64,000 nt of DNA from assembly GCA_016748015.1 (NCBI GenBank), contig JAAOMT010000328.1:636955-700954 (forward strand). Reading direction: 5' to 3'. The stretch is from Geosiphon pyriformis uo1. Lineage: Eukaryota; Fungi; Glomeromycota. A program made the translations under genes and the position numbers. The notes beneath the pieces are model-generated. The model had not been told where the DNA came from. It saw only the letters and a program-made list of their open reading frames with translations, and searched no databases. Positions 8,201-63,300 of the stretch are shown piece by piece; within the stretch, counting starts at the first letter, position 1; each line of letters begins with the position of its first letter.

Positions 8201-8270
8201 TACAGTATATTATAAAAAAAGAAAAAAAAATGGAAATGCTAATAGTTTGTCATAAATGAAACAAATCTAA
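2262..8270 (+). pseudogene. Element B gag-PR-Cys-rich-dUTPase-RT-RNase H ORF, with many nonsense mutations
   Basis: ORF fragments AESEIIETNHLEFAK, EKIAQ...GFGSM (dUTPase) and PFIITTDASG...PVAYAS (RNase H), collinear with element C. Confidence 0.9.
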
Positions 8271-8298
8271 ACATTTTAACTCAAAAATATAACAAAAA

Positions 8299-10267
8299 AT
8301 AAATACACAAAAATATCAACAAATTCAATATTATATTAATACTCAGCAATTCAAAGAGAAATTATCTCAAAAGGAACAAAACAACATAAAACAACAATCA
8401 AAATTTTTTATCACTCACCAAAATATATTATATCTAAAAAACAGAAAGAATCCAAATCAACCACTTAGAGTAATTACAGAACCAGAGAAAGAAATAATAC
8501 TATTTAATATGCACTCAAATCTAATAGCAGGATATTTTTATAAAGAAATAACCATTAAAAAAACCAGAAAAAGATACTATTGGCCATCAATGTATCCAGA
8601 CATTATCCAATATGTTTAAAATTGTGATGCTTGTTAGAGAAGAAGAGAAATAAGATTCAATGAGCCATTAAGACTAATTAAAGTAGGACAACTATTTGAT
8701 TGTATTGGAATTGACTTAGTCAGACCATTAACAATAACCAGTAGAGGAAATAGATATATTGCAGTAGCCATAAATTATCTCACTAAATGGCCAGAAACAA
8801 AAGCAATCTAAAGAGCAGATGCAGAATCTATTGTTAAATTTGTTTATTAAGACTTAATATGTTGATATAAATGTTCAAAAGAATTATTATTAGACCAAGA
8901 AACTTACTTTGTGAACAGAACTAAGTCAAAAATTTGAAATTAAATGACCACTATCATTATTATATTATCCAATGGCTTAGTTGAAAAATTCAATAGAATA
9001 CTGTGTAATGCAATTACTAAAATCAGTCAGGAAAACCAGGATAAATGATATTTGTTTATATTATCAGTACTATTTGCTTATTGAATAATGAAATAAGACA
9101 TTACACAAGCAACACTATTTGAATTAATATATGGTAGAACAGCAATATTACCAGTTAAAATAGAAGTTAAGACATATTCAATTAAACCAATAACAGAAGA
9201 CAATTTCCAAGAAACATTGTTAAGAAGAACATATAACTTAATAGAAATATTAGAAAACAAATGATGAAGAGCAGCTGATAACATTCAAAAGTCACAAAAA
9301 AAACAAAAAAAATGACATAATAACCAACTACCAAATAAACCAGAGTATTTTTATATCATACCAAAACAAAAAAACAATGGAGTGAAAAATTTGATCTCAA
9401 ATAAGACAGACCATTTCACATAGAAAAAATTCTAGGGAATGGAGCTTATAAATTAACATGGGACAACAAAATTTTAACCAAAGCAACACATAGTAATTGA
9501 CTAAAACCATATCACAATATAGTATTATTATTTACCAATAATATTCCACAACTGAGAGTACAAAAAACACTAGTGAGACCAGATAAAATTCCACAAAATC
9601 TGGAATCAATTATACATATTGAAACAAAACATGTTGATTTGATTTACCAAAACAATATATAAGAAACCAAAACACACAACAATAATAACAGAAAAATGAA
9701 AATTCCAGACAATATTTACCAATTAGCACAACAATTATTTCAAACCATAAATTAACAACAAACAAACATAGAAATAACGATCAATTATTAAACTATCTAC
9801 TATAAAAACACTAAAAAAGAAAGGAAAAAGACTATACTATATTAACAAACACACAAAAAAATTAGCAATAATATTGACAAAATTGTTAAGAAAGAAAAAA
9901 CACTCTCAAAAAACCAGTTGTTATTGTCCAACCAGGAGAAGTAATAACAAAAAATTGGGATAAATAAATAAAACAATTTCCAGTTTTATATTGCTATTAG
10001 CATTTGAGACAAAAATTTATTGGAAAAAAATCTAATTTGGGTATATATATTAAAATTATTTACCAAATATACATTATCTTTTAAAATTATCCAAAGATAC
10101 TATTACAACCAAAAATCAGTAGCTTATCTGTTAATCAATAAAGAAAAATGACCAACAGTCAGTTTGAAGAACTTTATGGAAAAATAGAGAAATTAATCTT
10201 AGAAAAAGAAGTTATAGAATTATTACAAGAAAGAATATTAAGAGATTTTAACAGAGCTTAATATTAA
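8299..10267 (+). pseudogene. Element B integrase (to ~9660) and ORF3 (9696-10267) remnants
   Basis: YYWP, GIDLV and LTKWPE integrase motifs; ORF3 starts MKIPDN and is homologous to element C ORF3. Confidence 0.85.
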
Positions 10268-30517: not shown

Positions 30518-31400
30518 TGTTACTCATAAAAAGAAAACAGATAGAGAAAATAACAGACCAATAAGAAAATAGTATTTAGCATGTGAGCACATTGCTTAGC
30601 AATATGAAGCAATGTCAGAAATTATGGCACATTGCTCAGCAAGGTGGAGCAATGTCAGAAAACATGGCACATTACTCAGCAATATGGAGCAATATTAGAA
30701 AATTAGAGCACATCATTCAGCAATGTGAGCATTGCTTAAGAAATCATAGCATATTGCTTGGAAATGTAAACGATCTTGTAGAACATCAATTATGTATATA
30801 TAATAGTAGCGTTAAAAGTAGAAAAAGCAGAATCCATCAGTTAGAAACCTTCTATATTACAAATATCAATAAATAATTATTCACTATTTCAATTCACTCT
30901 TCACTATCAGCACTTCATGTTGATAGTAATTAATACTTAACCACACTGGAACAATAGCTCTTGATCATGGCTATTGACGGGATACTAACTTGCAAATCAC
31001 CTTGGCTTATTTTTTACATTTCTTTATTTTCTTCTATTTCTTTTATTTGATTTTGTTGTATATTAATTGATTAAAAGCACTGAATTATTGATGTCATGGA
31101 TAGCTTGATAAAAGACCCAGAGATAAGAGTAGCATTATATATATTATTGGATAGCTTACCAGAAGAGCACAACTGCCAGAATAAATCTGGCCACCAAGCT
31201 GAGAAAAAAATTGGGAAACAACTTATACAAACTAACTGTGAATAACATCAACAAAAAATCTCTGTCCATTATACAAAGAACTCAACTCCAAAACCTTCAG
31301 ATACAACCAACATACCAGTATTACCAGTATTATCAATCAATTGAGCACCAAGTTATGGGTTTGTTATTTGCTATAAGACTCCAAATAAGCACCTGTAACA
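30518..31400 (+). repeat. 5' LTR of element C (U3 has ~40-bp tandem repeats at 30587-30765; TATA-like at ~30794; AATAAA at ~30868)
   Basis: Direct repeat of 39791-40673 with the same length. Confidence 0.96.
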
Positions 31401-31402
31401 TT

Positions 31403-31418
31403 TGGTGCTCCCTGTGAG
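31403..31418 (+). promoter_or_regulatory. Primer-binding site TGGTGCTCCCTGTGAG (probably tRNA-Ile(UAU))
   Basis: Directly after the LTR. Its complement CTCACAGGGAGCA-CCA resembles the 3' end of eukaryotic tRNA-Ile(UAU) (e.g. CTCACCTGGAGCA). Variants occur at 2201 and 54425. Confidence 0.7.
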
Positions 31419-31461
31419 ATATAATCTTACAGAGAACCAGCACCAACAACTCCATCCAAAA

Positions 31462-34400
31462 GTGGCAGAATCAGAAAACATAGGAGCAAACCATTTAGGA
31501 TTCACAAAATTCTTATTTTAACACTACTGTCAACACTTGGGATTAACCCCGAATCACATATTAGCAGAATCAGTCTTCAACTTTTACATCAATGAAAAAA
31601 TTGCCTACTTATTAGGAACAGCAACAAATACTGAATCAGCAAGAGAAACTTTTTACAACAAATTAATCCAAAACAGCAGCTTACCAACAAACTATAATTT
31701 TGCATCTATCATTACTGAGATTAATAAAGAAATTGAACATCACATCCAACAGAGATACTCAATTATCTATGCAAGTAAAGACAAAGGGAAACTACAAATA
31801 CCAGTAGTAATACCCAAAGAAATACAACCACCCACTTGAAAGAAACACAGAGTTGAATCACCTACCAATCCATCATATCATTATACTCCTGGAAGCACCA
31901 TCAATATCGCATCAACAGGTGCGTCCACATCGAATGTGACATCAACATTTGGATGATTCCTATTTCAAAGTAAACAAAGAAAAGAAGACTTATTAGGACC
32001 ATATGGCGCATATTTTGAAGGATTTAAATCATGATCACCAACATCATCAGGATTTTGATCACTGCCACTTTAACCAGATTTCAGAACCGTGAGTCCTTGG
32101 GAAGTCACAGAATCAGAAAGAAAACAAGAAAAAGAGGAAGAAGAATCTGAGGATCAGGAATTTACATACCAAAACCCGATCCCAGAAAACCCAAAATTTA
32201 AAACCCCAAACATTCAAACTTCAAAAAATCCAAACCAAGAAAATCCGGAAATCAAAATGCCAAATTTTCAAGCTTAGCCAAATCAGAACAACCAAAACTC
32301 CAACTTAATTAATCAACAAAACTTACCTCTAGTAATTGTCATTGATCAACTACCAATTAATCCAATAGCCAAACCTATACAACAACTGCTTCAACAGCCA
32401 CCACAACAACCCAACTTAGACCCAATAGCCTACACACCAATTGCAAAACTTGACAATTTTATCAGCAAAGAGGACGACGCTCAAGTATGGCTGAATGACG
32501 TGGAAAAAGCCATTGCAGCCAACAGATGGAATAACACCCAAGCAATGCAAGTCATTCCCTACTTCCTCAAGGATACCACTGATTCATGGTATCAGAGCTT
32601 GATTAATAAACCACAAGACTTCAATATTTTCAAAGTGGAATTTTTAAGATACTTCAGCAACAATAACAGTATTAATTGCCTAGTCAATACATTTACCACC
32701 ATAAAGCAAGGAGAAACTGAAGCAGTTACTACTTACCTAGAATGCTTCCATAGAAACCTGTGCCAAATTCAAGCAATTAATGCCAACTATTTTACAACAC
32801 CACAGATTCTCAACCAGTTTATCCATGGTTTGCACAGCAGTATCTTGCAACATGTACATCTATTGCATCTAGGCACCCTTCAAGACGCAGTTACCCACAC
32901 CAGAGATTTTGAATCAGCTGAGTTAAAAGCCAACCACACCCAAGCCATTAATCTAGTGATGAACAGATTATCTGAATTGGATTCCAAATTGGAGAAATTC
33001 AGTAAAACAATTAATCAGAAGATAGAGAGATACTTAGTTAACAACAATCAGACAATTTATCAACCACCACAACAATGCAATAATTAAGGAAACTCTAATT
33101 ATCCACAGAACCAACCATGTCTATCTTCATCAACCAATCAACAGTGACAACAAGAAATGCATATCTGCTACTATTGTGGTAAACAAGGACATATCCAAAT
33201 CGACTGCCACCAGCATATAAATAACCAATGATCAGGAAATCAATATCAAAATCCTGATTGCTGGTTCCAATTTTGAATCATCAATCAAACTCAGCACAAT
33301 ATCAAACCACTTACCTGCTGATGATGCAGCAACCAATCTATCAACCATCAGCATATCAAAACCCAATTTATCAACCACAAACAATTTACCAGCCACAGCC
33401 ACCAGTAATATATTAACCACAGCCACAAGTAATCTATTAGCCTCAACAATCAATCCAAACACCACTCCAAAATCCAGCTCAAATGACATTAGGAGATCCC
33501 AGATCCAGAATCACCCAAAACTGGAGATCAGTAATGATCATTCACCAACCAATTCCCAGCTTTTTTTACCAATCCACTGGATCATGCTCTTGGAATTTGG
33601 GTACTGGTTTCAACCAAAACCCAAATTTCCAACACTATTTAAGTCTTCTGGTTACTCCAGAAAATGCCACCACCAACAATCCAGAACCCCATCAACAAAT
33701 AACACTTACCAACAACATCCCACCAGCAACCATTACCAACAATGAATCATTGGCCACCATCTTTCTCTTTGAACTCGAAGAAACCACAACAGTACTGCTA
33801 TTCAGTGGAGCTGCTCTAAAAGAAAAACCCATCACGGCTATGTACACTAATGCAAAAGTTAATGGACACTTCATCAAACTAATCTTAGATAGTGAATCAG
33901 CTGGCAGTATTATTACTAGACAACTCATGGATCAATTAGGTTGCTAAGTTGATCACACTGCCAGTGCCAGAATTATCACAGCTAATGGAGCAACCAAAAC
34001 ATCCATTAGAGAGATTAACAATTTATCCATAGAAGTCAATGGCATTATTATACCAATTAAGGTACTGGTAATGGAAGCCACCCAGTACCAAGCCCTCATT
34101 GGCAACAACTGGCTGTCTAAAGCCAGTGCCATTATGGACTGGAACACGCAAAAGGTTTAACTCAGTCAACATAACCAACATACAAAAGTACCAGCCATCT
34201 GTGGTCACTTTAAATCAAATTATTTCTCCACACTATTGATTGAATTGGAAGAAGAAAAACTGAAACCTACCTGGGAGGTGTACCAAGTGTTGTGGGCCAA
34301 CAATGACCACAACAAACTGCTGCCAATACTATTGTGGGACAAGCCAGTAAAAGGAAAACAAAGAGAAGAACCCACCTGGGAAACTAACAATCTGACATAA

Positions 34401-37400
34401 ACTGACAATAATGACAGTGAACTGACAGTAAATTGGGAGTGGGAAGAAGATAAAGGAAGAGACAAAGGGAAAGGGAAAGAAAAAGACACTACCCAAGCCA
34501 ACAATACTTATATTCCAAACACTTACACTCCACCACAACAGTTTACCTATCGCTAACCCAAATTAATATGCATTAATTGTGGCAAAAAATTGTCATCAAT
34601 GGGCACATGCTGTAGCAATAATGAAGAATATCAAATAGTGACCAAATTTTACTGTTATGTATGCATTATAGAATGCTTTGGACGACTGAAAAGACAAGAA
34701 AAATGGGACAACAAATCTTGTCTAGCTTGTGGTGAAACCTTACTTGATGAAGGAATGTGGAATGACATTTCTGGTCGAGGAGAAACATGCAACACTTTGT
34801 GTCAGTACACGATCCTCATCAGTGACTGGATCAAGAAAAGAACTCCAATAGAAGCTGCTTGGAGAAGAGCTGTGCAGTGATTAGACAGTTGCCCACACAA
34901 CAATGACAAGATCTGGAAAATGACAATGGCCAAGATAGAAGGAACATCACCTGAAAAAATCAGAGAAATCAAAAACAATCCACCAGAACCCATAAAACTT
35001 AACTGGGACTCAGAACCAGTCATAAATTTTCTAGATCCAGAACAATTTCATGAACACTACCAAAAGTTAGCACTCACAAGAGAAGAGCAAGAGCAATATC
35101 TAGAACAATTGAATACTCGACTATGTTAACACTGCCTAATTCCTTGTGACTTTCAATATTGTAATGAGTGTGACCTTATTTACAATCCACCATCATGCAT
35201 GATCTACACAATCTTAAAAGAAAACAAACCAATGAGCAGCTGCATGTCAAAATCGGAATCAGTTTTCAATTCCAATTCAAACTTTGACAATGACGACAAC
35301 AAAAATAATAGTTCCAGCTTCACTTCAATTAGCAACACAAATTATGACAATTCAAACTCTAATTCATACTCCAAAACATTTATCACACTTTCTGATCTTA
35401 CCAAGAAGCATGAACTGAAATGGTTCAGCGATAATAATGAAGGTATCATGCCTGAATATGTGCACAATACTGATGCAGAGTTTAATCTAAGATATCCAGA
35501 GAAAATTCTATTCAATTGGAACCATATTCACACACCTGCATTGATCTCAAGGTAGTATTGGAAATTCCAGCAACAATAATAGTTCAACTAGCATCCAAAA
35601 GTAGTTTAGCAAAAAAAGGGATAAACATTAGAGGAAGAATAATTAACATAGGATACATAGGAAATATCATTGCTATGCTACAAAATGATTCAGAAAAAGC
35701 ATATAGCATAGACCCAAATGAAAAAATAGCACAAGCAATATTCCTATTTCTGGTAAAAATAGCTCAGTTAGTGTCAGTGGGAAACAGGGAAGAATTAGGA
35801 ATTACAATTAGAGGGATACAAGGATTCGGATCAATGGGTAGAATAGATATACCAGTTAATATGACAGAGAAAAAAATTGTTGACAAAGGAGAAATTATCT
35901 CAACTCATCAATCAATCTCTATTCCACCATATGACCAGTATATGTTAGCCATAAAGAGAAAAGTGAAGAATCAAGCTCAATTGTTTGAAGCAGAAGCTAC
36001 TATTTGCAAATCAGGAGAAATTGGACTCACCAATCTCTACATATCAGCCAACAGCTCCAAAAATATCAAAATTCTCATCTACAACACAACGGAACATGTT
36101 ATTGAAATACCAAAAGGAACTGTCATTGGATATTTAACCACCAAAGTTGAAGACCAACCACCAAACCATATTCCAGATTTTCTACAGCTTTGTGGATATA
36201 TGGACATTACATCACAAACCATCTACAGACGAAGTGAATATTATTTGCTCCAACTGGGACAATTGGAACAAACAAACATGGGCAACTTAGATCCACTTTA
36301 ACAGATGCAGCTCAAAATGTTGCTCAACAATTTCAATGACATCTTTGCAAGCAAAAATGAATTTGGCCACACCAACATCATTCAGCATCAGATCAAGACT
36401 AAAGATACAATGCCAATTAAGCAAAGAGCATACAGAGTACTACCAGCTAGCCATAAGATCATTCATCAAGAAATCAACTAGATGCTTGACAATGGGCTAA
36501 TTCAGCCATCAATGAGTCCATGGTCATTACCAGTGGTACTGGTCCAGAAGAAAAATGGAAAAAATCCACTTTTGTGTGGATTATCAAAAACTGAATGGAG
36601 TAACTAAAGGTGATAGCTATCCAACTCCAAAGATCCAAGAACTATTTGACACTTTTGGAGGAAATAAATAGTTCTCAACATTAGATCTAAACAGTGGTTA
36701 CTGGCAAGTAGCTATAAATCTAGCTGACAAAGAGAAAACAGCATTTACCACAAAAGAAGGGAATTTTGAATTTGAAATCATGCCATTTGGCTTGATGAAT
36801 GCCCCAGCAACATTCCAATGGCTCATGAAAATTGTCTATACTAGACTACTATAGAAATTAGTAGTTGTATACTTGAATAACACTAATGTGTTCTCAAAAA
36901 CATTCGATAATCATCTATATCATCTTCAACAAGTGTTTGAAAGATTAAAAAGAGCTGAATTGAAACTAAATGCAACCAAATGTTTTTTTAAAAAAACTGA
37001 ACTCAAGTTTTTGGGACATATAGTAAGTAAAGATGGAATCAAAACAAATTCAGACAAGATAGAGATTGTCAAGAACTTTCTAGTACCAAATAATCTCACA
37101 GAATTAAAAGCATTCTTGGGATTTGCTGAATACTACTACCACTTCATTAAGGACTTTTCCAAAATAGCTCAACCACTACACCAACTCCAAACAAAGAATG
37201 TGAAGTACGAATAGACAGAAACCCAACAAGAAGCTTTTGACATATTAAGAAGAAAGCTTATCCAAGCTCCAGTATTGATGTATCCAGATCACAGCAAACC
37301 ATTCATTATTACTACCAATGTATCTGGCCAAGCATTGGGAGCAGTGCTGTTACAGAAAGGACCAGATGGAAGAGAACATCCAGTAGCTTATGCCAGTAGA

Positions 37401-37673
37401 AGCTTAAGTCCAGCTGAGAAGAACTATGAAACTCCAGCACTAAAACACTTAGCTATCTATTGGGCTGTCATCAAATAGAAGGAATACTTGAGTCAAAAGT
37501 TTGAAGTGTACACTGATCACAAAGGATTGACTTCAATTCAGAAACAAAAATTTGTAGATGATCACCATATCAGATGGAAAATAGAACTTTCACCATTTAA
37601 TTATACAGTACATTATAAAAAGGAAAAAAACAATGGAAATACTAATGAACTGTCATGAATAAGACAAATCTAA
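31462..37673 (+). pseudogene. Element C ORF1: Gag (capsid ~32420-33000, CCHC ~33166-33207), protease (LILDS ~33878), Cys-rich insert (~34560-35190), dUTPase (~35430-35850), RT (YLNN from YLDD ~36870), RNase H
   Basis: Motifs CYYCGKQGHIQIDC, DAEFNL, SKSSL, IINIGYIG, EKIAQ, RGIQGFGS, MPFGL and PVAYASR. Interrupted by transition-derived stops and a few 1-nt indels. Confidence 0.93.
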
Positions 37674-37703
37674 AAACATTTCAACCCAAAAATATAACAA
37701 AAG

Positions 37704-39080
37704 ATGAATACACAAAAATACCAACAACTCCAGTATTATATAAATAATTAATCATTTAAGGAGAAATTATCTCAAAAGGAACAAAACAACATAAAACAAC
37801 AATCAAAATATTTTATTAATCATCAAAATATACTCTACTAGAAGAACAGAAGAAATCCAGATCAACCAATTAGAGTAATCACAGAACCAGAGAAAGAGAC
37901 AGTATTATTCAACATGCACTCAGATCTAACAGCAGGACATTTTCACAAAAAAGTGACCATAGAAAGAACCAAAAAAAGATATTATTGGCCATCAATGTAT
38001 TCAGACATCATCTAATATGTTCAAAATTGTGATACTTGTCAAAGAAGAGGAGGAATAAGACCAAGTGAACCATTAAGACCAATCAAAGTGAGACAACCAT
38101 TCAATTGCATTGGAATTAACTTAGTCGGACCATTAACAATCACCAGTAAGAGCAACAGATATATTGTAGTAGCCATGGATTATCTCACTAAATGGCCAGA
38201 AGCAAAAACTATTCAAAGAGCAGATGCAGAATCCATTACCAAATTTGTCCATCAAGATTTAATATGTCGACATGGATGTCCAAAAAAACTACTATCAGAT
38301 CAAGGAACTCATTTTGTAAATAGAACATTAACAGAATTAAGTCAGAGATTTGGGATAAAAAAACCACTATTATTATTATATCATCCACAAACAAATGGAC
38401 TAGTCAAAAGGTTTAACAGAACATTGTGTGAAGCAATTGCCAAAATCAGTCAAAAGAATCAGAATGAATGGGATTTGTTTATATTATCAGTACTATTTGC
38501 TTATCAAACAATGAAGCATGACACTACACAAGCAACACTATTTGAATTAGTATACAGTAGAACAGCAACATTACCAGTTGAAATAGAAGTCAACACTTAT
38601 CCAACAGAACCAATAACTAAAGACAATTTTCAGAAAACGTTGCTAAGAAGAACATATAACTTGATAGAAACTCTAAAAAACAAGCAATAAAGAGCAGCTA
38701 ATAACATCCAAAAGTCACAAAAAAAACAAAAAAAGAGACACGATAACCAACTACTAGACAAATCAGTTGAATTCAAGATTGGAGACAAAGTATTTCTACA
38801 TTATACTAAAACGGAAAAACAATGGAGTGGAAAATTTGATCCCAAATGAGACAGACCATTCTACATTAAAGAAATTATTGGAAATGGAGCTTATAAACTA
38901 AGATGAGACAACAAAACCTTAGCCAAAACAGCATATGATGATCAACTAAAACCATATCACCAAATAGCATTATTATCCACTAATAACATTCCACAATTAG
39001 GAGTACAACAAATATTAGTTCAACCAGATAAGATTCCATGAGATCTGGAACCAATTATAATCATTGGACCAAACACGTAA
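37704..39080 (+). pseudogene. Element C integrase (HHCC, DDE core, GPF/Y C-terminus; no chromodomain seen), apparently a separate ORF
   Basis: ATG at 37704; H..GHF..YYWP..CDTCQ; LSDQGTHF; YHPQTNGLV(E/K)RFNRTL; stop at 39078-39080. Confidence 0.9.
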
Positions 39081-39141
39081 AATCAAACAATAAAAGAGTA
39101 TATAAAAGACACAGTATATGCGACAAAGGCAACCAAGAAAA

Positions 39142-39777
39142 ATGGAAATACCAGATTATATTCACACCATAACTCAACAATTATTCCAGGCCTTAAGTCA
39201 ACAACCTTTAAACATGGAAATTATCGTTAACAACCAAACAATTTGCTATCAAAACACCAAAAAAAAGACAAAGAATACACCATATCAGCATTTACCAAAG
39301 AATGATAAAAACTGGTCAGATAACATAATTGAAAAAGTAAAGAACACTTTTGGAAAAATACCTATTATGGCACCAACAGAAGAACTTACAAAAAAGAATT
39401 GAAAGCAATAGACAGAGCAACTTCCAATATTATACTGTTACTACCAGTTAGGTTGAAAGTTGAATATTCAGGAGTTGTATATCAACAAATCCAAAAGAGT
39501 ATTTAACCAAAACATAATACAGCAAATTGAAGAATTTATTGGGAAAAAGACAAACTCAACACTACATGTAAGAACAATTTATTGACTGCACAACATATTT
39601 CAGAACTATCCAGAAATACTGTTACACTCTGACATAGAAACCATATCTATTAACCAATAAAGAAGAATAAACAATACACAAGTAGAAAATGTGAAGAACA
39701 GAGTCGAACAAACAATACTTGAAAAAGAAGTATTAGAATTAATTCAAGATGAAGATTTCGATAGAGCTCAATATTAA
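39142..39777 (+). pseudogene. Element C ORF3, ~211-aa protein of unknown function
   Basis: MEIPDYIH...LPILYCYY...EDFDRAQY* in one frame with only a few internal stops, mostly TGG/CGA-derived. Homologs are present in elements A and B. Confidence 0.75.
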
Positions 39778-39790
39778 AAGGAGGAGATAA

Positions 39791-40673
39791 TGTTACTCAT
39801 AAAAAGAAAACAGATAGAGAAAATAGCAGACCAATAAGAAAATAGTATTTAGCATGTGAGCACATTGCTCAGCAATATGGAGCAATGTCAGAAATTATGG
39901 CACATTGTTCAGCAAGATGGAGCAATGTCAGAAAACACAGCACATTGCTCAGCAATATGGAGCAATGTTAGAAAATTAGAGCACATCACTCAACAATATG
40001 AGCATTGCTCAAGAAATTATAACACATTGCTTGGAAATGTAAGTGATCTCATAAAACATTAATTATGTATATATAGTGGTAGTGTTAGAAGTAGAAAGAG
40101 CAGAATCCATCAGTTAGAAACCTTCCACATTACAAATATCAATAAATAATTATTCACTATCTCAATTCACTCTCCACTATTAGTACTTCATATTGATAGT
40201 AATTAATACTTAACTATACTAGAACAATAGCTCTTGATCATGGCTATTGACGGGATACTAACTTGCAAATCGCCTTGGCTTATTTCTTACATTTCTTTAT
40301 TTTCTTCTATTTCTTTTATTTGATTTTGTTATATACTAATTGATTAAAAGTGCTGAGTTATTGACATCACGGATAGCCTGGTAAAAGACTCAGAGATAAG
40401 GGTAGCATTATATATATTATCGGATAGTTTACCAGAAGAGCATGACTGTCAAAATAAATCTGGCCACCAAGCTGAAAAAGAAATTGGAAAACAACTTATA
40501 CAAACTAACTGCGAATAACATTAACAAAGAATCTTTGTTCATTATACAAAGGACTTAACTTTAAAACCTTCAGATACAACCAATGTACTAGTATTACCAA
40601 CATTATCAATCAATTGAGCACCAAGTTATGGGTTTGTTATTTGCTTTGAGACCCCAAATAAGCACCTGTAACA
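39791..40673 (+). repeat. 3' LTR of element C
   Basis: Follows the PPT aaaaggaggagataa. Confidence 0.96.
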
Positions 40674-45350: not shown

Positions 45351-46114
45351 ATATTGCATAGTATGCCAATTTTATTATTGGTCATTAATTAATCCAAATT
45401 TATACAAAAATATACATATGTATTTTTAATGTAATTTTTTAATTTTTTAATATTTTAAAAAATTTGTTCACAATGTTTATTCTATTATGTTGTCTATTTA
45501 TTAATTCAAAATTAATTATTGTTTATTAAAAGTTCCAATTGTTATTAATATAATAAATAATAACAAAAACAAAAATTTTATTATTGGGAAATATTTAAAA
45601 ATCTGATGTAAAGAAAATTTTGGACTTGATAATACTTAAATATACTTATTATATTATAAATATAGATAAAAAAAAAACATTTTATAATAAAAAAATACTT
45701 ATTCTTAATTTTTGTCTATTCAAAATATAGAGTTCTATAACTTTATTTTTAATTGTATTGGCACAAACAGGTTGAAAAGTGGAATTTAAATATTGGAATA
45801 TTTCAATTAATTTAAGATCTTTTACTATAAAAAATGGTTGTTGGCAGTTAATAAACCAAATAATAATTATGTTACAAAATTTTTTATTATTAATAGCAGT
45901 TACTACAAAAAACTAGAGCAGTTTTCAAGTTAGATTGGCCAAAAATCATAAAAAAAAATAGTAATCTTATTAATTGAAACATTTTAAAAAAAACTTCTTT
46001 TTCTCTTATCTTCACAAATTCCTAAAAAGTGCATTTTCTGAAAAAGAAGTTTTTTGTTTTTTTTTAGTCTATATCAATATTTCTTTACCTAATAATAACT
46101 CATTTTTCATAGAT

Positions 46115-47969
46115 ATGAAGGCTACTGCTAGTGGCACCGCACTTAAGAAAAAGGCTCCTAAAGGTGCTTTTCACGGTCCTGCTGGTGGCTTCTTTTCTCA
46201 GAAGAAAAAAGTTGTTCTTGGTAATGTAAAACATTCTGGTAATGAAAAGGATCTAGTGGCAGTATTTATTTTAATGTGAAGAGTCTATCTGGTGAGAATG
46301 AGGATGTTAACATGTTTGGGACAAATGGTAGGTCTCTTTTGGGTTCAGCTGCTACTACACCCAAGGCAAAGCAAATTAACACTGGTACTGGTTTTGGTTC
46401 TCCACTTGGCTTTCCTAATTTTCATATGGATGATGATGAAGTTGTGCTTCCTCCTCACTTGCTTATCTCTTTAGAAAAAAAGTGGATTGACCCTAAGATT
46501 ATCAAGACTCCTGTGAAAGTGTCAATTAGAAAGTTATTTGCTTTGAATATTAATCTCTCAGCTGTGGAAAATAAATTGGTGATGGCAAAAACTCAGTTAA
46601 TTAGGAAAATTTTTTCAACAGTCAATGGTTTTGGGGGGCCACTACTCCCTCAAAATTTGAAGGGATCATTCGATCTACCTTTACTTTCAAAAAAAGCATA
46701 AATATGGCTGTATCCTTGGCCAGGGAAAAAGGAATTGTTGTAAACACTGATCTCAGAAAATCAGAAGTACGTTCAGATCAGGCTGTAATAATCAAAAAAA
46801 TTCCCATGGATACTCCAAAGGAAATGATTGTTGCTGCAGTTGCTGAGTTTGGTGAAATTAAGTTGATCAAAATTCAGTTAATTGGCATGTGGCAGAAGGC
46901 TGTGGTGAAGTTTGCCAAATCAAGTCAAGCCAATTAGTTGGCCTCAAGATGGTCATTCCTAATTGGGAAAAATTCAGTGCATGTGGCCAAAGCTGTGGGT
47001 GATCATAACACCTGGGCATCTAGAGATTAGTTTAGGGCACTGTTGTTTACTTTGCTGGTGAGAACAACTATGCATGATCTTGGTACTCTTTTGAATAAGA
47101 CTGGTGAGAAAACTTGCACCATTAATTGATTATTGAAGACTGGCAATAGGGTTTGTTGTGCAGTAGTTGGCTTTGAGCCTAAGGTGGATTTGGACTTTGC
47201 CTTTAGTACTAAGTCTGTTTTTGGCAGTGTGTAATTATCATGGGCTAGGTTAGATTTAGTTCAGTGTGGAAAGTATGAAAGATTTGGTCATTTAGCCTTG
47301 GAATGTGATGCTTCTGATGTTGCTATTTATGTGTCTTCTGTTCTCTTTAAAAAAAATGCTCCTGGTATTGATCATCTTCAATTAGCCAAGTTGTATGCAA
47401 AGAAAAATATTTCTATTTCTTGCCCTACTGTCTTTGGTGGCAAATCATGGACTCAAGTAGTCTTTCTTGCTCTCTCTTCTGGTAGCTCTCCTTTTGGCTC
47501 TAGTTATGGTTTAAGCTTTTCTTCGTCTGGTGCTTTGGGGTTGGGTAGTAATGCTTCCTCTTTTTCATGTGATGAGTCTCTCTTGGCTGCTTATTTGGCA
47601 TCTTTGGAGCACTCTCTTGAACTTTTGGCTGACCAGGTTTCTGGTATTCTTAGGAAATTGAGTTTTGTTAAATTGGTGCCCATGGTACCGTCTTCTGGTG
47701 CTCCTTCTTTGGTCGGCTTTGTGCTGGTGGCTCCTGTTTTGGATTTGGATATGGCTTTGAATGGTGTGTTGGTTTCTTCTTTTCCCCCTCCCTCAAGTGT
47801 TGAGTTAGGTGCTGGTTTCAATTTGAGTAGTTCAAAGATTCTGACCACCAAGATAAGTGGTTTAGAGTCTAAAATGTCAGCTATAAAGGCTTTGGTCAGT
47901 TCTGTTTTGGTGAAATTGGATCTCTTGTGTTCTGGTTTGGGTTTCTCTTTACCTCTTTCATCCCAATGA
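46115..47969 (+). pseudogene. LINE ORF1 (degenerate zinc knuckle ~47260-47306; C-terminal leucine-rich/coiled segments)
   Basis: MKATASG...; C..(C)..FGH....C; disrupted by stops and frameshifts. Confidence 0.8.
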
Positions 47970-50900
47970 ATGATCTGGTTTGAAAATTTGCTATGTGTAA
48001 TGTTCATGAAATCAATGTCCCTGCCAAGCAGGAGAATGTTATGCATTGACATTGAAATTCTGACAATTTGGTTTCATTCATCATGGAAACAAAGTTAAAG
48101 GTTTTTACTAGGCCATGGATTGTGAATAAGTTTAATGGAGTGCAAATTTTTTCTTCAGGATTGGATAAAAGTTTCATTGGTGCTGGTGTTGCTATAATTA
48201 TGGACAATTCCTTGGCTCGTTATGTTTCTAAGGTGGAAGAGGTTTCTAGTAGGATTGTTTCTGTTCGGCTCTTATTTAAAGGCAAGCTCTTGGTTACTCT
48301 TTTGAGTTTATATGCTGGTGCCTTTTCTGGGGCTAGATTTGGTCAGACTTCTGAAGTTAACTCTCTCATTGCAAAAGCCATCAATTCCAGTACTCATGTT
48401 GTTTTGGGTGGGAACTTTAATGAGAATGGATCTGGTAAGAGTACAAGTTTCAAGTTCTGTTTGGGTTTGGGTTTGGTCAATTCATTTAGCAGTCATTATT
48501 CAGCTGGTTCTCATACATGGAACAACTCAAGAGGGGTTGTGAAAACAATTAATTATATTTTTGTTAGTGGCAGCTTGTCTTCGGCTGTTGCTGATCATCA
48601 AACAGTCTCTGTTTCAGATTTCTTTGACACTAATCACAGGGCAGTTATGGTGTCAATTGGTTTGAGTGGGCTTCTGAATGTTCAATTGAATAGCTTGCAC
48701 AAGCAGATGAATAGGGATCGTTGGAAATTCAAGTTCAAAAATGCTGACAATGCTAAATGGGCTAAGTTTAGGGATCTCTCCTCAGCAAAACTCTTGTTAT
48801 TGGGTGACGTGTTCTCTGGTGCAGAAGCACGTGGTGATGTGGATACTATGTGAACAATGTTGCAGGAGGCTGTAGTAGAATTTGCTGATGAGATGTTTTC
48901 AAAACATTGGTTCAGCAAATTTAAGGGTCCGAAAAACAAGCATTCTTCCAAGTTTTTTGGCTTGGAATTATTGGTGGCCAAAATTGTCAAGAAATTTTGC
49001 TCTGGTGGCTTGTCTGATGTCAATCTTCTTGTGAGTAAATGGTTGACTCTGGATAATGCCAAGACTTGTGCCTTCAGTGACTTGGTTAGCTCGGGTGTTA
49101 AATCTGATGTTATTGTTAAGCATTTGTCATTGATCTGCAGAGATTACAGGAGAGCCAAGATGTTTGAGTCGAGGTTTGCTAAGGAAACTTCTATTAGAAA
49201 GGCAATTAATAGGCACATGGATAATTTCTGTTCAGAAAAAAGTAGTATGATAAGAAGTGTGTTGGACAGACCCTTTCACAAAGTAGTGTTGGATCACCTG
49301 GTGGTTGATGACGAATTGGTTTTAGAGCCTAAAGAGGTGAAGATGAGTGTGGACAAGATAATAGAAGGGTGGACAAGAAAAAATCAGTACATGCAGTGAT
49401 CCCTGATCATTGGACTCGGCAGTATGCGCTATTAAGCTATGTTCAAGATGATGTCTTTTCTGGTGTTATGTATGAGGTTGACATGGATGAGTTGCTTTCT
49501 GTTGTTAGTGGTCTGTTTGATGGCAAGGCCACTGGTTTGTCTGGTATTCCAAATGAGTTGTGGAAACATGATGGTGAGGTGGTTTTGGGATGCATGTTAG
49601 CATTATTTAATGTGTGTTTGACTGCTGGTGTGGTACCTGTTTTATGGAAAAAGGTGTGGGTTTCTATGATTTCTAAGCCTTACAACTGAGATGGGGTCCT
49701 CATGAACACTCGACTCATTGCTTTGATTAAAACTGTCAAGAAAATTCTGTCTAAGATTCTGTCTGATTGTATTTCAGTGGCTTGCAGCAAATTCAACATT
49801 CTTCAGAGTGACAATTTCTTAGTGTTGAAAGGTATGTCTACACAATCTCCAGTGTTTGCTGTTGGTTCAGTGATTAAAGATACTCTTGAAAAAAATTGAG
49901 AGGTTTGGTTGGTTTTGCAGGATATGCAGAAGACTTATGATTCAGTTGAATAGCACCATTTGAAGGCTAGCTTGCAGCATATCAAGATGTGTGAGAAGTT
50001 TATAAGATTTTTCAGTGGTATTCATGAGGATAGGGTTAACAGGGTAATGACTGACTTTGGTTTATCTGATGGCTACAAGGTGCATGATGGTCTAAATTAG
50101 GATGAGGTTTTTTCACCTCTCCTGTGGAGGATCTTTTATGATCTGCTCTTGTGTGAGGTTAAGAGGCATGAACAATTGTGTGAGTACTGGATTGATACTA
50201 AGTTTGTTTCAAAAACTGGCAGAATTGAGGGTGGTAGTGGTTTGACTTTATACTTTTTGGCTGGCACATTTGTTGATGATACAATCTGGGTTGGAAATTG
50301 TCAGACTTCTACTCAATATGCATTGAACATTGCCAGTGAGTTTTTTATGATCAATGATATTTCTATTAACAGTGAGAAGACAGTAGTTATTCTCATAAAT
50401 CAGGGTGTTAAGATTGCTAAGCTGAGTATTTGTGGTCAGTCTATTTTGATTGCTAAGAAGGGCAAAGCTAATCACTATTTGGGTATTTTTTTGTCAACTG
50501 AAAGGTTGTCCAAGCTAAGTATTGCCAAGGCTCATGCAGATGTGCATTTTTTTGTCAATGTTGTACTTAGAAAGGCAATTATGGACAAACAATTCTTGTA
50601 TTTGGTTTCAGCTGTTTTACAGCCTATTGTCAACTATCGTATTGAGTTCAGTTTTGTCTCTTCTAATGTTTGTCGCAAGTGGGATGCCTTAGTTAGGAAG
50701 GGTCTCAAATCTAAAGCTTGTCTTCCTCATGATTTTTCTAATGCTGCTTTGCATTATTCATTATTCTATGGCCTGAAACTTTTTGAGCAGGTGTAGTCCA
50801 AAGGGAAAGTGGCTGCTTTGATAATGTTCTCCAATGCTTCTGGTGTTCTTGGGCATTTGTTTAATCATAGATTTTTGGATTTGCAGGTTCTTGGTTGGGC

Positions 50901-52656
50901 TCCTTTGGATTCTTTGCAGTTTTCCATCAGGTTGCATGTCAGTCCGGTGAACAATTTTTTGGCTGGGTTGATAAAGATCCTTTTGGACAATAGGCTTTCT
51001 CTGGTGAACAATCTCCTCACTGCATTTTATAGTCCTGGTCACTTTCTTATGTCTGCTATTCTTGAGAAGTTTCTGTATTTTAATTTGGTCATCTCTCTTA
51101 GACATTTTGGTGTTGCTTTTAGTGATCAACTTTTTGATAAAAAGGGTGGTTTGATGGATTGGAAGACATTTTGCCATTGAAAGAGATTGGATCCACATGG
51201 CTCTGTGCCTCATTGGTTCGTAGTTTCTTCTGAGTTTTTGAAAAGTAAGGGTTTTTCATCTTCTGGTTCTGCTGACCCTGTTGTGCTACTTGGATTAGAC
51301 ATTTTGGGGTCTGGAGAGTTCTCTGCTGTAAGGGATGGATCGCATGACATGTGGTTGGGTTTTTTTGAAGTTTTTATGGATGGGTCTTTAAAGAATTTTG
51401 GTTCTGCTGGGATTGTTAGTGGTACTGCTGCTTACTTTCTGGCCTTGGATTTAAGTGTTGGCATTGCTGTCCAGGGTTTCTTGTCATCTACTATGGCTGA
51501 ATTACAGGCTGTTGTTTTGTCTTTGGAGTGTGTTCCTTCTTCGAATACTGTGGTGGTGCATCTTAACAGCCAGACTGCTATTGATGCTTGTATGTCTGAG
51601 ATGTCTTTGACTGCCCCCAATTTTTGTAATCAATACTGAATAGAAAGGCATTATATTTTCAATTTGGTTAAGGATAAAGATTTTAGTGTGAGTTGGGTTA
51701 AGATAAAGAGCCATTCTGGGGTTTCTGGGAATGTGGAGGCTGACTTGGCTGCTGGGGCTATCTCTGGGTCTCCTTTTTCCCTGTTGGCTGGGGTGTGTAA
51801 ACACTTTCTGGTTGCTGAGGATACTCCTGTCTCTGGTAATGCCTGTTATTTTGTCAGGAATATTTTTTATTCTGTTTGTTGTGCTCATTGGGAAGCTGGT
51901 CTTGGTTTTGATGTAGTTCTGGATGCAATGATTGTTTGCATAAACTGGGTTGTTATTGCAATGGTGTGGCATTCTAATTCTCATATGCTTACCAGTTTTA
52001 CTAGTCATAAGTTCTCAGTGCTTTGAATTTATCTTATAAAAGCTGTCCACAAGAGATTGCCAGTGGCAGTCAGAAAGAAGTTGTATGACAGGTGTTACCC
52101 TGGTGTATTGTGTTTGTTGTGTGGTGGTGTGGAGTTCTCTAACCATTCTTTTACTTGCACTTATGAGTCTGGCATTCGTGATGAGATCTTGGCTGAGACT
52201 TCTGCCCATTGGTCTGTTTTGGCTGATGCTTCTAGTTTTTCTGCTTCCACCATGCTATGGGTTTTATTTCAATGTTCTGTCGATGTTGGACTGTATACTT
52301 TGATTTGCAAAGGGTTTGTGTTGAATGAGTGGTATAAGGAGGCATGTAGTGTTTTCAATGATAAGAAAGTGGCTGTTGCTCGGATTACTAACTTTGTGAG
52401 ATTTGTTGTGGAATTACATCATGCTAAAATGTGGTTGGTAAGATCTAATCACCGAGTGAAAATGGAGAAGACTGGTTTGGTTCATAATAGCAGTGTTATT
52501 TCTGGGCTTGCTTATGGGGTGTCTTTGGTTTTGTCTAATGGTGTTGTTAGGTTGCTTGGTCTGGCTGAGTCTTTTGCTGTTTGCTTTGGTTGTTAGAGAC
52601 CGTATGGTTTTTTTTCTGGTCTGGATGGTGATATGATGGTTAATATAGGTGTGTAG
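47966..52656 (+). pseudogene. LINE ORF2: AP endonuclease, RT, RNase H, C-terminal CCHC
   Basis: CNV..IN, ETKL, LGG(D/N)FN and T(D/N)H (APE); FVDDT (RT); FMDGS, AELQA and KSHSGVSGNVEAD (RNase H); CLLCGGVEFSNH. Confidence 0.92.
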
Positions 52657-53503: not shown

Positions 53504-56500
53504 TATTACTCATAGAAATTTAAGAAGTCTTAATAAAGATATAAAGTAGCCAATTAAAGATAAGTGTAGTAAGAAAAAAATTTCAGGATTTCTCTCAAAA
53601 AATTGCAAAATTCTAGAAATTTCAGGATTCTTCTTAAGAAATTGTAGGATTTCAAGAATTTTAAAATTCTTTTTAAAAAATTACAAGATTTCAAGAATTC
53701 CTGGCTAGAAAAATTAAAGAAATCTAAAGAATTTTATATAACAGTAATTATGTATATATATAGTAAGAGTATTAAAAACAAAAAAATAGGATCTCAATTA
53801 GAATTAATTTAATTATCCAATACTGTTTCTTTCAAAAAATAGTTTTTTACAACTTGAAATAGAATCAACCACATATTAATAAAATATCAATTATTACTTG
53901 AATTTATGTTATTGTCATTTAATTAAGGAATATTAGTTACTTTTACTCTATCAATACTCTATGTTAATAGAATCTAATACTTAACCATATTAGACCAATA
54001 GCTCTTGATCATAACTATTAACAGAATACTAATTTTTTATTTTTTTTCTTATTTTTTTTATTTTCTTTTATTTTTTTTATTTTTTTGTTTTGTTTTGTTG
54101 TTTACTAATTAATTAAAAAATTAATATGCAGAATTATTAATGTCAAGAAAAACTGATAAAAAACCCAAAAATAAGAGTAAAAACTCAGAATTTAAGAATA
54201 ACTTACCAGAAAAAACCAGCCATCAAGCTGAGAAAAAATTCACGAAATACACTTTTGGAAAGGTATTAAAACAATTATTGAATCTTTGTTTATTATACAA
54301 AAAACTCAACCAAAATCTTCAGATCATGAAAATTTTTAGATATTACTACTAAGCATTAGCTATTAAGTACCAAGTTACAGGTTTGTTATTTGTTTCCACA
54401 TTCCAAATAATTATCTGTAATATTTGGTGCTTCCTGTAAGGTATAATCTAGCAAAAAACCAATATTAACAACAATTATTTAGAACAGTGGCAGAATCAAA
54501 AAAAATAGGAACAAATTACTTGAAATTTACAAAAGCTTTATTCCAATACTATTAAACTTACTTAGAATTAACAAGTAATCATTGGCCAGCAAAATCAACT
54601 TTCAACTTTTACATCAATGAAAAAATTAAATCTTATTTGGAAAACCAAGAAAATCTGAAAGCAGTACTTAACAATTTCTATAGTAAATTACTCCAAAGTA
54701 CTATGCTTTTATAAAATCATTTGTTTATTCCAATAATTACAGAAATCAACAAAAAAATTGGGAAACACACTAGTTAGCAATTTTCTATTATCTTTACAAA
54801 TAACAAAAAAAAAATTACAAACACCAACAAAAACACCAAAAAGAATACAACTATCTACTTAAAAGAAACCAAGAGTTATTTCACTCATTTACTTATCATA
54901 CTATTATACATCAGAAAGTATTATACATATATCATTAGGATCTGTATCACAATTAACTATAAGAACACTATTACTTCAAGTTCTATTTCAAAACAATTAA
55001 AAAAAAGCCAGATTATTAGGAATCTACAATGATTTTTTTGAAAGATTTAAATTATAACCAACAACTCTATCAAAACTTTTATTATTGCCATTCCAACCAA
55101 ATTTTAGAGTCACAAATTTTTGAAAAATAACTGACTTTAAAGAAAAAAAGACAACAATCAGAAAATTAATAATTAAAATCCAATCTTAGAAAACCCAGAA
55201 ATTCAAACTTTGATTGTTTAGGCTCAGCAAAACCCAAACAATTTAAATTTCACTTCTATTATTTCACAAACTTATTTCTGGTAAATCCGATCTATTAACT
55301 ACCAATTACACTAATTGGTTTATTACAACCACTATCTTTACAACAATAATCTCAACAACAATTACAACAATCACAAGTAACACCAATGGCATATATACCA
55401 ATTACCAAATTAAAAAAATTTATTGGCAAAGAAGATAATATACAAGCATGACTAAATAATGTGGCCAAAGCCATTATGATTAATGGATAAAACAATATTA
55501 GAGCCTTATAAGCCATCCTGTACTTTTTACAGGATATTGCTAATTTGTGATATTAGAGTTTGATCAACAAACTTATAACTTTTAATGTATTTAAAACTGA
55601 ATTTTTAAGATACTTTAGTAATAATAACAGCATTAATTGCTTGGCAACTGTTTTCATTACTATTAAGCAAGAGAACATTGAAGCTATCATTACTTACTTG
55701 GGACACTTCTATAAAAATCTGCACCAAATACAAGCAATTGATGTGAATTATTTTATAGCACCACAAATTCTAAACCAGTTTATTCATGGTCTGTACAGTA
55801 GTCTCTTACAATGTATATGTTCATTACATCTACAAACACTTCAAGATATAGTCATACATGTCTAAAATTTTGAATCAGCAGAGCTGAAAGCCAATTATGC
55901 TCAAACTATTAATCTAATAATAAATGGATTATTTGACTTAGATTCTAAGTTAAAACAATTCAATGATTTTATCAATCAGAAATTAGAGGAATACTTAGCT
56001 AACAATCAAGCAATTTATCAATCTTTACAATATTGTAACAATTCAGAAAACTTTAATTAATTCCAAAATCAGTCACATTCCTTATTTTTAACTAATTAAC
56101 TATAATAGTAAAAGATGCATATCTGCCATAATTGTGGTAAACAAGGCCATTTAAGAGCTGATTGTCATGTTAGAATCAATAATTAATGATCATGAAATCA
56201 ATATTAAAATTCTAATTGCTGGTTTCAAATCCCAAATTACACTCAAAATCAAAAACTATATTAATCTTATTACATTTTAATGATACAACAACCAATATAT
56301 TCACCTTTAGTGTATCAAGCTTCAGCACCAATCATCTATTAGACACAGTCACAAACTATTTATCAGCTGCAACCACAAATTATCTATTAAATCTCACCAA
56401 TTCAAACACCAAATTAGATGTTATCTGGCAACCAAAAGCCAAAAATTACTCAACATAATTGGAAATTGATAATAGTAATATATCAACTAATCCTCAGTTC

Positions 56501-60300: not shown

Positions 60301-63300
60301 GATGTGTACACTGATCACAAAAAATTGACATCAATCTAGAAGCAAAAATTTGAAGACAACTACTATACAAGATGAAAAATAGAACTATTATCATTCAATT
60401 ATATAGTATATTATAAAAAAAACAAAAACAGATATGCTAACAGTTTGTTGCAAATAAAACAAATCTAAGAACATTTCAACCCAAAAATATAACAAAAGAT
60501 GAACACATAAAAATATCAACAACTCCAATATTTTATTAATATTTAACAGTTTAAGAAGAAATTATCTCAAAAAGAACAAAACAACATGAAACAATAAGCA
60601 AAATATTTTATTACTTACCAAAATATATTATACCAGAAAAACAGAAAATACTCAGATCAGCCACTTAGAATAATCACAGAATTAGAAAAAGAAACAATAT
60701 TATTCAATATGCACTTAGATTTAACAACAAGACATTTTCATAAAAAAGCAACTATGGAAAAAACTAGAAAAAAATATTATTGGCCATTTATGTATTCAAA
60801 CATTATTTAATACATTCAAAATTGTAATGCTTATTAGAAAAGAGAAGGAATAAGACCTAATAAACCACTAAGACCAATTAAAGTAAGATAACTATTTAAT
60901 TGAATTGGAATTAACTTAATCAAATTATTAACAATAATTAGTAAAGACAATTGTTATATAGTAATAACTATGGACTATTTTACAAATAGCCAAAAGCAAA
61001 AGCAATCCAAAGAGCAAATACAGAATTTATAGTCAAATTCATTCACTAAAAGTTGATTTGTTAACACAGATGTCCAAAAAAACTACTATTAGATCAAAAA
61101 ACTTACTTTGTAAACAGAATATTAACAAAATTAAGTCAAAGATTTGAAATCAAAAGATCATTATCATTATTATATCATCTACAAACCAATGGCTTAGTAA
61201 AAAAATTCAATAAAACATTATGTAAAGCAATTACCAAGATCAGCCAAGAAAACCAGGACAAATAAAATTTGTTCATACTATCAGTATTATTTGCTTATTA
61301 AACAAACTACACAAGCAATACCATTTAAACTTGTTTATAGTAGAACAGCAATATTATCAGTTGAAATAAATATTTACACACATCTAATAGAACCAATAAC
61401 AGAAGCCAACTTCCAAAAAACATTGCTAAGAAAAACATATAACTTAATAGAAACATTAAAAAACAAAAAGCAAAAAGCAGCTAATAATATCTAAAAGTTA
61501 CAAAAAAAACAAAAAAAATAACATAATAATCAATTACTAGATAAACCAATTGAATTTAGAATTGAAAACAAAGTACTCTTATATTATACCAAAACAGAAA
61601 AACAATAGAGTAGAAAATTTGATCCCAAATAGAATAAACTATTTTACATTGAAAAAATTCTAGGAAATAGAGCTTATAAACTATGATAGAATAACAAAAT
61701 CTTAGCTAAAGCAATACATAAAGATTAATTGAAATCATATTACAATATAGCATTATTATTTACTAGTAATATTTCACAACTAAGAGTACAATGAATACTA
61801 GTTCAACCAGATAAGATTTCATGAAATCTAAAACCAATTATAATTATCAACACAAACACATCAAATTAAGATAGCAAAAAAATATATAAAAAACCAACAT
61901 GTAACAAAAACAAAACAAAAAAATAGAAATTATTAATAACATCTACTTATTTACATAACAACTGTTTTAACTGATCCAAAATCAATAACAAAACATAGAA
62001 ATTACAATTAACAAACCATTCAGTATAAAGATAAAGAGAAAAAACCAAAACATCCATACAAAATACACCAAAAATCAAAAAACATAATAAATAATATACT
62101 AATAAAAGTAAAATTATCAGTAGAAACATCCAGGACAACAACATTATATAAAGAATTAACAAAAAAAAACTGGAAATAGTAAACACAACAATTTCTATTT
62201 GCTATTATTACTTAAAACAAAATTTTAATATTCAAAACTTGTATACAAACAAAACAAAATAATTGTTTAATATAATAATATTGAATTAACTCAAACAATT
62301 TGTGAAAAAAAATAACTTATTTACATAGGCACAAGTTATATACCAGTTACAAACAAGATTTTAAGACTGACCAGAAATATTACTGTATTCAACAATGAAC
62401 ACAGTAACTATTAATTAATTGGGAAAGATCACCAATGCCCAATTCAAAAAATTACAAATCAAAATTTCTTAAATAATTTTCAAAAAAAAAGTTAGGAAGT
62501 TAATTCAAGAAAAAAAGTTAAAAAAGTTAAGAGATTTTGATAGAGCTTAATATTAAAAGAAGAGAATAATATTACTCATAGAAATTTAAGAAATCTTAAT
62601 AAGAATATAAAATAGCCAATTAAAAATAAGTATAATAAAAAAAAATTTCAGAATTTTTCTCAAGAACTTGCAGAATTTTAGAAATTTCAAAATTTCTCTC
62701 AAGAAATTACAAGATTTTAGGAATTCCAGAATTTCTGATTAGAAGAATTAAAGAAATTCAAGAAATCTTGTATAACAGTAATTATGTATATATAGCAAGA
62801 GTATTAAAAACAAAAAAGTAAGATTTCAGTTAAAATTAATTTAATTATTCAATACTTCTTTCTTCAAAAGATAGTTTTCTACAACTTAAAATAAAATCAA
62901 CTACATATTAATAAAATATCAATTATTATCTGAATTTATATTATTGTCATTTGATTAAAGAATATTAGTTGCTTTTATTTTATCAATATAAAGTGTTAAT
63001 AGAATTCAACACTTAACCACACTAGACCAATAGCATTTGATTACAATTATTAACAAGATACTAATTTTTTATTTTTTTTCTTATTTCTTTTATTTTCTTT
63101 TATTTTCTTTATTTTTTTGTTTTACTTTGTTATTTACTAATTGATTAAACGATTAATGTACAGAGTTATTAACATTAAAAAAAACTGGTAAAAAACCTAG
63201 AAATAAGAATAAAAACTCAGAATTTGAGAATAGCTTACCAAAAAAAACCAGCTATCAAGCTGAAAAAAAATTCATAAAATATACTTCCAGAAAAATACTG

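Follow-up and report, generated by a model that had tools for sequence, protein, structure and literature searches.

In a family of Ty3/Gypsy retrotransposons found in a 64,000-nucleotide stretch of DNA from Geosiphon pyriformis, referred to here as the window, integrase (IN) is almost certainly encoded as a separate cistron, with its own ATG located behind the stop codon that ends Gag-Pol. The split between reverse transcriptase (RT) and IN is real and inherited, and not a product of decay. Judging from the sequences of the relatives identified to date, it appears to be equally real across the whole clade. IN is usually translated as the C-terminal part of the Ty3/Gypsy Pol, a feature that lies outside the formal definition of these elements, and neither the window family nor its 11 nearest relatives have it in that position.

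Three full LTR elements reside in the window, namely copies B (1223-11239), C (30518-40673), and A2 (53504-63454), whose LTR pairs are approximately 86%, 91%, and 81% identical, respectively. Copy B is flanked by a target-site duplication (TCAC/TCAC), the flanks of copy C (ATAG/ATGG) are compatible with a decayed 4-bp duplication, and those of A2 differ from each other. Based on LTR anatomy (paired TG...CA LTRs, a motif like a primer-binding site (PBS), a polypurine tract (PPT), and a short target-site duplication) and on the Gag-protease (PR)-RT-RNase H (RH)-IN domain order, these elements are Ty3/Gypsy, and the Pfam matches to RT_RNaseH and Ty3_capsid fit this assignment. The domains recognized in the copies are Gag, a protease-like region, dUTPase, RT, RNase H, and an H2C2/rve integrase (Table 1). 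All three copies are dead: the ratio of observed to expected CpG is only 0.02-0.15, and the RT-RH-IN region of copy C (36303-38690) carries 13 stops in 796 codons. All three also harbor a long Cys-rich and Asn-rich insertion in the interval between protease and dUTPase (34250-35500 in the window). Elsewhere in the window, we observed the 3' piece and LTR of another copy, near A2 in sequence (15-1228), and, where the window ends, an LTR-like piece in inverted orientation (63635-64000, minus strand). A gene of host type (13796-18277, minus strand) encodes a protein kinase domain together with some 23 Sel1 repeats in a 108-nt array, and a LINE-like element in decay (45974-52596, plus strand) matches endonuclease, RT, and RNase H weakly.

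Table 1. Coordinates of the features of copy C in the window, and of the RNA motif and ORF3 in related metagenome loci.
Feature	Location	Strand	Basis
5' LTR of copy C, ends TGTTA...TAACA	30518..31400	+	
Primer-binding-site-like TGG motif, directly after the 5' LTR	31403..31418	+	sequence
Gag fragment (Retrotrans_gag, Ty3 capsid-like)	32278..33087	+	
Aspartic-protease-like region, decayed, limits approximate	33900..34250	+	read off the translation
dUTPase domain, between protease and RT	35504..35833	+	Pfam PF00692, E 6e-13
Reverse transcriptase (RVT_1), decay stops inside	36573..37025	+	
RNase H, up to the end of the Gag-Pol frame	37215..37670	+	
TAA, inherited Gag-Pol stop	37671..37673	+	junction read in the copies and the contig pool
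Spacer of 30 nt, rich in A and C and free of ATG; second in-frame TAA at 37695	37674..37703	+	
Separate integrase ORF, from ATG to the family-end stop; premature stops in copy C	37704..39080	+	
ORF3, decayed, positioned like the ORF3 of relatives	39142..39777	+	
Polypurine tract	39776..39788	+	sequence
3' LTR of copy C	39791..40673	+	
RNA motif in relatives	L006:4454-4507, L007:576-629, L009:176-228, L010:481-533, L012:166-218		
RNA motif in relatives (continued)	L016:2-52, L019:483-535, L024:10-62, L004:13-65		
ORF3 in relatives	L001:2284-2712, L006:5890-6330, L007:1915-2364, L009:1488-1916, L010:1870-2385, L017:8758-9447		

In copy C, a TAA at 37671, a second TAA at 37695, and the IN ATG at 37704 all lie in the RT-RH frame, and 30 nt separate the first stop from the ATG. 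The same elements are found on the plus strand of copy A2 (TAA 60466, TAA 60490, ATG 60499; junction 60466..60501), while copy B, also on the plus strand, carries the TAA at 8268, a 2-nt deletion in the spacer, and ATA at 8299 instead of ATG (junction 8268..8301). Both spacer TAAs are identical in all three window copies, and the junction coordinates given for them in the initial annotation proved exact. Between 37671 and 37706, C and A2 are identical at 35 of 36 positions, compared to 1368 of 1780 in the coding sequence, and 4 of 34 columns of the spacer region are variable versus 10.3 expected, with a p value of approximately 0.01 that is optimistic, since the region was picked by eye. Other parts of the initial reading need to be qualified. 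The frame was said to end right after RNase H, and a TAA is indeed located there, but the sequence around it is interrupted by the many decay stops mentioned above; likewise, the IN of copy C, which was called complete, is so only in its extent, as premature stops occur at 37749, 37839, 38013, 38688, and later, and two of the three DDE positions read N and K.

Because each of the two spacer TAAs is a single C>T change away from CAA, decay was taken as the first rival explanation for the split. According to it, the stops would derive from Gln codons, either independently in each copy or once in a non-autonomous ancestor, and the heavy mutation that these copies have undergone would speak in its favor. 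We calculated stop statistics on the 776 gap-free codon columns across C, B, and A2. Gln codons were turned into stops by C>T in 2 of 44 cases in C, 7 of 44 in B, and 11 of 44 in A2, and based on these rates the chance of a stop matching in all three copies is about 0.002 per column. In the count of gap-free Gln-type columns, three matching stops were found only at 37695 and at 37212, the latter being Trp-type; 37212 and 36513, where all three copies also carry a stop, are in fact Trp-type columns in which the stop codon differs between copies. Position 37671 is absent from the gap-free count owing to the adjacent gap in B, but reads TAA in all three copies nonetheless.

The contig pool (run X1) offered a second view of these positions. 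It comprised 4151 contigs on 37560-37860 and 68 variant places, and among the 40 of these 68 that are listed, the weakest at approximately 17% of depth or 15 contigs, there is no variant at 37671, 37695, or 37706. At the private T's of copy C, the pool majority is C (37749, 59% of depth; 37734, 71%; 37757, 69%; 37817, 76%), and the pool holds no C majority at either spacer TAA. A sense majority at the stops would have shown under any ranking; a minority sense allele may remain, and the other 28 variant places include two T>C changes. Some contigs turn back inside the spacer and 15 loose ends fall after 37702, which hints at repeated or longer spacers in other copies. Columns with transversions, furthermore, are distributed over codon positions 1/2/3 as 9/3/40 of 211 in RT, 3/3/19 of 150 in RH, and 5/1/24 of 257 in IN (p 1e-7). 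As transversions concentrate at third positions, IN was kept functional after the subfamilies that share the stops had diverged, which argues against decay. More importantly, relatives free of such stops are split too, and on the available sequences it is these intact relatives that refute the decay reading, to which we assign a very small likelihood. That the shared stops are not independent decay, as was proposed initially, is thus supported by the three identical TAAs, by the pool, and by the relatives; sense codons at both TAAs in the consensus or the youngest copies, named at the time as the observation that would overturn the proposal, did not emerge from either the pool or the relatives.

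Our search for these relatives was conducted by scanning metagenomes with a 40-sequence IN alignment, and returned 80 loci, and in 45 of these RNase H precedes IN. The 11 that rank highest among the 45 are all split, with stop-free RH and IN matches and a stop between them. IN is out of the RH frame in nine of the 11, with both +1 and +2 offsets, and in frame in L003 and L013. From the stop to the first in-frame ATG, the 11 gaps measure 89, 163, 63, 62, 365, 74, 30, 727, -8, 110, and 107 nt; they include the 30-nt gap of L013, associated with two in-frame stops, the start/stop overlap of L018 (-8), and the long gaps of L008 (365 nt, with 7 ATGs) and L017 (727 nt, with 12 ATGs). The conserved 30-nt spacer described at the outset is therefore a property of the window family, and not of these relatives, whose gaps are unrelated. 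The remaining 34 loci, which are more distant, comprise 20 fused elements and 14 flagged as split; in 12 of these 14, stops inside the RH or IN match point to decay. L027 looks split, but as it is nested among fused elements near L032, we interpret it as a private frameshift. The most complete picture is provided by L006, where a single 1479-aa Gag-PR-RT-RH-extension frame is followed by a 418-aa IN, then by an ORF3 of 147 aa, and finally by a polypurine tract. LTR signals, either a PPT or PBS-like, are seen in several relatives. The view that these elements are polycistronic (Gag-Pol without IN, then IN, then ORF3) is thus upheld, as intact relatives have the same layout in three frames, and the survey of related elements suggested along with it, run here on metagenome loci and proteins, found every one of the 11 nearest to be split.

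Quick trees of RT-RH and IN, in which the rows are database hits with no named reference elements, placed the 11 split rows and two gene models in one RT-RH group (SH-aLRT 88), and also grouped the split elements by IN, in a set of 28 rows (SH-aLRT 89) that includes the apparently fused Pol P0275, located inside the IN clade on a long branch. With supports below 95 and L023 placed by neither tree, a single origin of the split is compatible with these data although not proven. Other features of the loci were also recorded. An IN match lies upstream of RT-RH in the distant loci L059, L063, L076, and L080. Gag/Pol junctions vary within the clade, from the single frame of L006 to an other-frame overlap in L013 (2898-2916) and single in-frame stops in L017 (3357-3361), L008 (869-873), and L018 (480-484 and 1584-1588), which may represent readthrough or decay. 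Pol runs past RNase H for 316 aa in L006 (3490-4439) and for 588 aa in L017 (4938-6703) before reaching a stop, and this extension is Cys/His-rich in the L007 and L019 fragments.

Database proteins point in the same direction. The window IN matches 1116 proteins of 180-574 aa, the best 120 of which are all integrase-only, with identities of 44-56%. A start Met is present in 118 of these 120. The first zinc-finger His occupies residue 72, its position in the query, in 60 of them, and lies at residues 68-73 in 89. The IN ATG is therefore homologous to the start codon of a large integrase-only protein family; Rhizophagus and Cetraspora supply the nearest named proteins. Of 295 longer proteins, the best 120 include just three that reach the same score range, P0272-P0274. 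These are Cetraspora and R. clarus gene models that lack the RH end and the IN start and are joined at differing places, and the IN of P0273 hardly differs from P0035, a stand-alone protein of R. clarus; judging from the proteins alone, we read these in-clade "fused" proteins as gene-model artefacts. In a phmmer search with the junction, the matches were distantly related fused Pols (28-46% identity) and, at 72-74% identity, two short gene models that either skip the junction or start within IN, while a homologue search with the junction region alone gave no match. In viral contigs, no relative was found with a single query, and three weak ones were found with the alignment.

How IN is made in these elements is a matter of weighing several routes. 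Synthesis of one Pol-IN polyprotein, by stop readthrough or programmed frameshifting, could be contemplated on the grounds that C, A2, L003, and L013 have their IN ATG in frame with Pol. In C, A2, and L013, however, two in-frame stops would have to be crossed, most relatives have IN out of frame, there are further stops in the gaps, and the start Met is conserved. As the frame varies freely, and the length of the gap likewise, both readthrough and frameshifting were rejected, and we see hardly any likelihood for either.

We regard it as an even prospect that the window copies are dead members of a split-IN lineage in which IN was translated by termination and restart across a short, ATG-free spacer. 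Reinitiation as the route of IN translation in this family we would rate slightly below that, and we favor it over the other routes. The start/stop overlap of L018 favors reinitiation, as does the window spacer, which is short, devoid of ATGs, and weakly folded. Moreover, nine of the 12 split junctions (window C and the 11 loci) have at most 163 nt to the homologous ATG, and seven of the 11 positive gaps are ATG-free. There is also a precedent in LINE-1, reported to reinitiate across a 63-nt spacer (PMC5972666). On the other hand, the depletion of ATG in short gaps (4 versus 10.6) is matched by that of the control word CAT (9 versus 16.6), and the gaps of L008 and L017, with their many ATGs, would be hard to cross by scanning. 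Most of the junctions also differ from those of TURBS-type reinitiation, which is reported to fade beyond approximately 30 nt and to be independent of Kozak context (PMC10275272). Stop and start lie within about 20-30 nt of each other only in window C (30 nt, a borderline case), L013 (30), and L018 (-8), with the other nine of 11 loci beyond this distance, and the IN ATGs are in strong Kozak context: an A at -3 is found in 14 of 20 IN starts compared to 32 of 100 internal ATGs (p 0.002), and a G at +4 in 16 of 20 compared to 27 of 100 (p 1e-5), the latter being due in part to a conserved Asp/Glu at residue 2. As to an upstream RNA element of the TURBS type, no 6-mer is present upstream of the stop in more than five of 12 regions.

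Such strong context also favors translation of IN from its own subgenomic mRNA, obtained through an internal promoter or through splicing as in env-like or foamy-virus pol-like expression. We consider this route possible but rather unlikely. The long gaps of L008 and L017, rich in upstream ATGs, speak for it, as does the downstream ORF3, which needs a similar solution, and foamy-virus Pol is produced from a spliced mRNA (PMC3705302). Against it, 10 of 20 starts lack a YAG in the 40 nt before the ATG, among them window C, whose nearest YAG is 95 nt away. Over the 120 nt upstream of the ATG, the 20 starts also have neither a YAG nor a branch point at a common position. Upstream of the ATG there is no shared word besides A-rich 6-mers, and the L018 overlap is more easily explained by coupling. 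The expression route may, after all, differ between branches.

Internal ribosome entry, for which either a leader that is A-rich and unstructured or, in one subclade, a structured motif before the ATG would serve, appears improbable to us. The leaders contain little G, are rich in A in most cases, and fold weakly, and nine loci of one IN subclade do have a covarying RNA structure of approximately 40 nt shortly before the IN start. This motif is composed of a closing stem, a 5' bulge with a small hairpin, a long stem, and a near-invariant loop. In the alignment, 94% of cells pair and two-sided changes affect eight of 13 pairs, in a structure derived from the same nine sequences on which pairing was scored, and covariation is higher than in every one of 500 shuffles and in all slid controls. 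We rejected a tiny GT-AG intron as an explanation, as L004 lacks those ends and the pairing covaries. The motif has no Rfam match, a search of Rfam with 19 loci gave one match at chance level, and exact scans of viral and prokaryote genome contigs returned none. It is absent from the window, however, and its model recovers only the nine training loci among 81 sources; furthermore, a stable stem beside the AUG could equally repress translation or bind a protein.

The ORF3 located downstream of IN belongs, in nine relatives, to a family of approximately 140-230 aa, predicted to be all-helical (pLDDT 88). The ORF3 of L007 has no Pfam family and no Atlas match, and comparing its fold with pdb, pdb_via_wide (best Z 5.0), and BFVD yielded no match either. 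When the window row is excluded, comparison of the window ORF3 with that of the relatives yields a probability of only 0.5%, although the position is alike. In L009, the ORF3 ATG overlaps the IN stop (ATGA), creating a second stop/start junction.

If reinitiation is indeed the route, translation of the Gag-protease-RT-RNase H frame would terminate at the TAA, and ribosomes would restart at the IN ATG, with IN presumably reaching a lower level than Gag-Pol. IN would be made as a free protein, whose start would lie approximately where a protease cut would otherwise release it, and it could reach the particle or the cDNA through non-covalent contacts with RNA or with Gag/RT, in a manner similar to foamy-virus Pol. 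It is tempting to speculate, albeit tentatively, that this lineage swapped protease release of IN for separate translation, that the junction then came to be an overlap, a short spacer, or a long one, and that in one branch a structured RNA binds or regulates free IN and brings about its loading in cis, a step in which ORF3 would help.

In LTR retrotransposons and retroviruses, fusing integrase to Pol normally settles both its amount and its entry into the particle. A successful clade that dropped this fusion must settle both otherwise, and the intact L006 and L013 would allow both to be tested, namely reinitiation once a very long ORF has been translated and the packaging of integrase as a free protein. 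Should our reading be correct, these elements would represent a new expression and packaging strategy for LTR elements with a DDE integrase, as well as a living intermediate that connects Gypsy elements with integrase-only transposons of the Ginger kind, in a lineage that would be old, widespread, and of fungal type. There are also implications for annotation. Integrase-only proteins of Rhizophagus carry generic integrase or transposase labels, gene predictors appear to splice across the RH-IN junction, and surveys in which elements with an rve domain are named Ginger (PMC5751038) could include some split-IN elements.

Our search of the freely accessible literature has so far retrieved no published account of a Gypsy clade with a separate integrase. 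Canonical Ty3/Gypsy elements, including the fungal PosPlaTy3-5, share with the window lineage the LTRs, a PBS-like motif, a PPT, a 4-bp duplication, the Gag-PR-RT-RH-IN order, and the H2C2 and rve domains, and PosPlaTy3-5 also has a dUTPase between PR and RT, as the window copies do (PMC2864245); the window lineage differs in having IN outside the Pol frame. The accessible text of that fungal survey describes most full-length elements as having one Gag-Pol ORF or two ORFs, and that same text mentions no separate Int ORF (PMC2864245). As in mammalian LINE-1 and silkworm SART1, a downstream enzyme ORF sits here behind a stop, with a 63-nt spacer and an overlap, respectively, in those elements (PMC5972666, PMC10275272). 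These, however, are non-LTR elements whose downstream ORF encodes an endonuclease-RT, whereas here an integrase of a particle-forming element is involved, and the mechanism is a proposed one. The bicistronic systems of the fungal viruses HvV190S (a victorivirus) and CHV1 (a hypovirus) and of calicivirus TURBS resemble the L018 overlap, but they need overlapping or very close codons and upstream RNA elements, while most junctions here span 30-727 nt and showed no common upstream motif. Ginger1 likewise encodes an integrase of Gypsy type that stands alone, is about 400 aa long, and has an aromatic N-terminal segment preceding its H2C2 finger; it differs in its terminal inverted repeats, lack of RT, and extra C-terminal domains (PMC2836005); Ginger1 or Ginger2 identity was rejected for our elements, given that RT-RH lies upstream of IN in the window copies and in the 11 nearest loci with enough flank. 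Foamy-virus Pol, finally, is also an enzyme made without Gag that needs separate, RNA-dependent packaging, which occurs through genomic RNA sequences (PMC3705302). In foamy viruses, however, it is the whole PR-RT-IN precursor that is made separately, from a spliced mRNA, whereas in the lineage described here it is IN alone.
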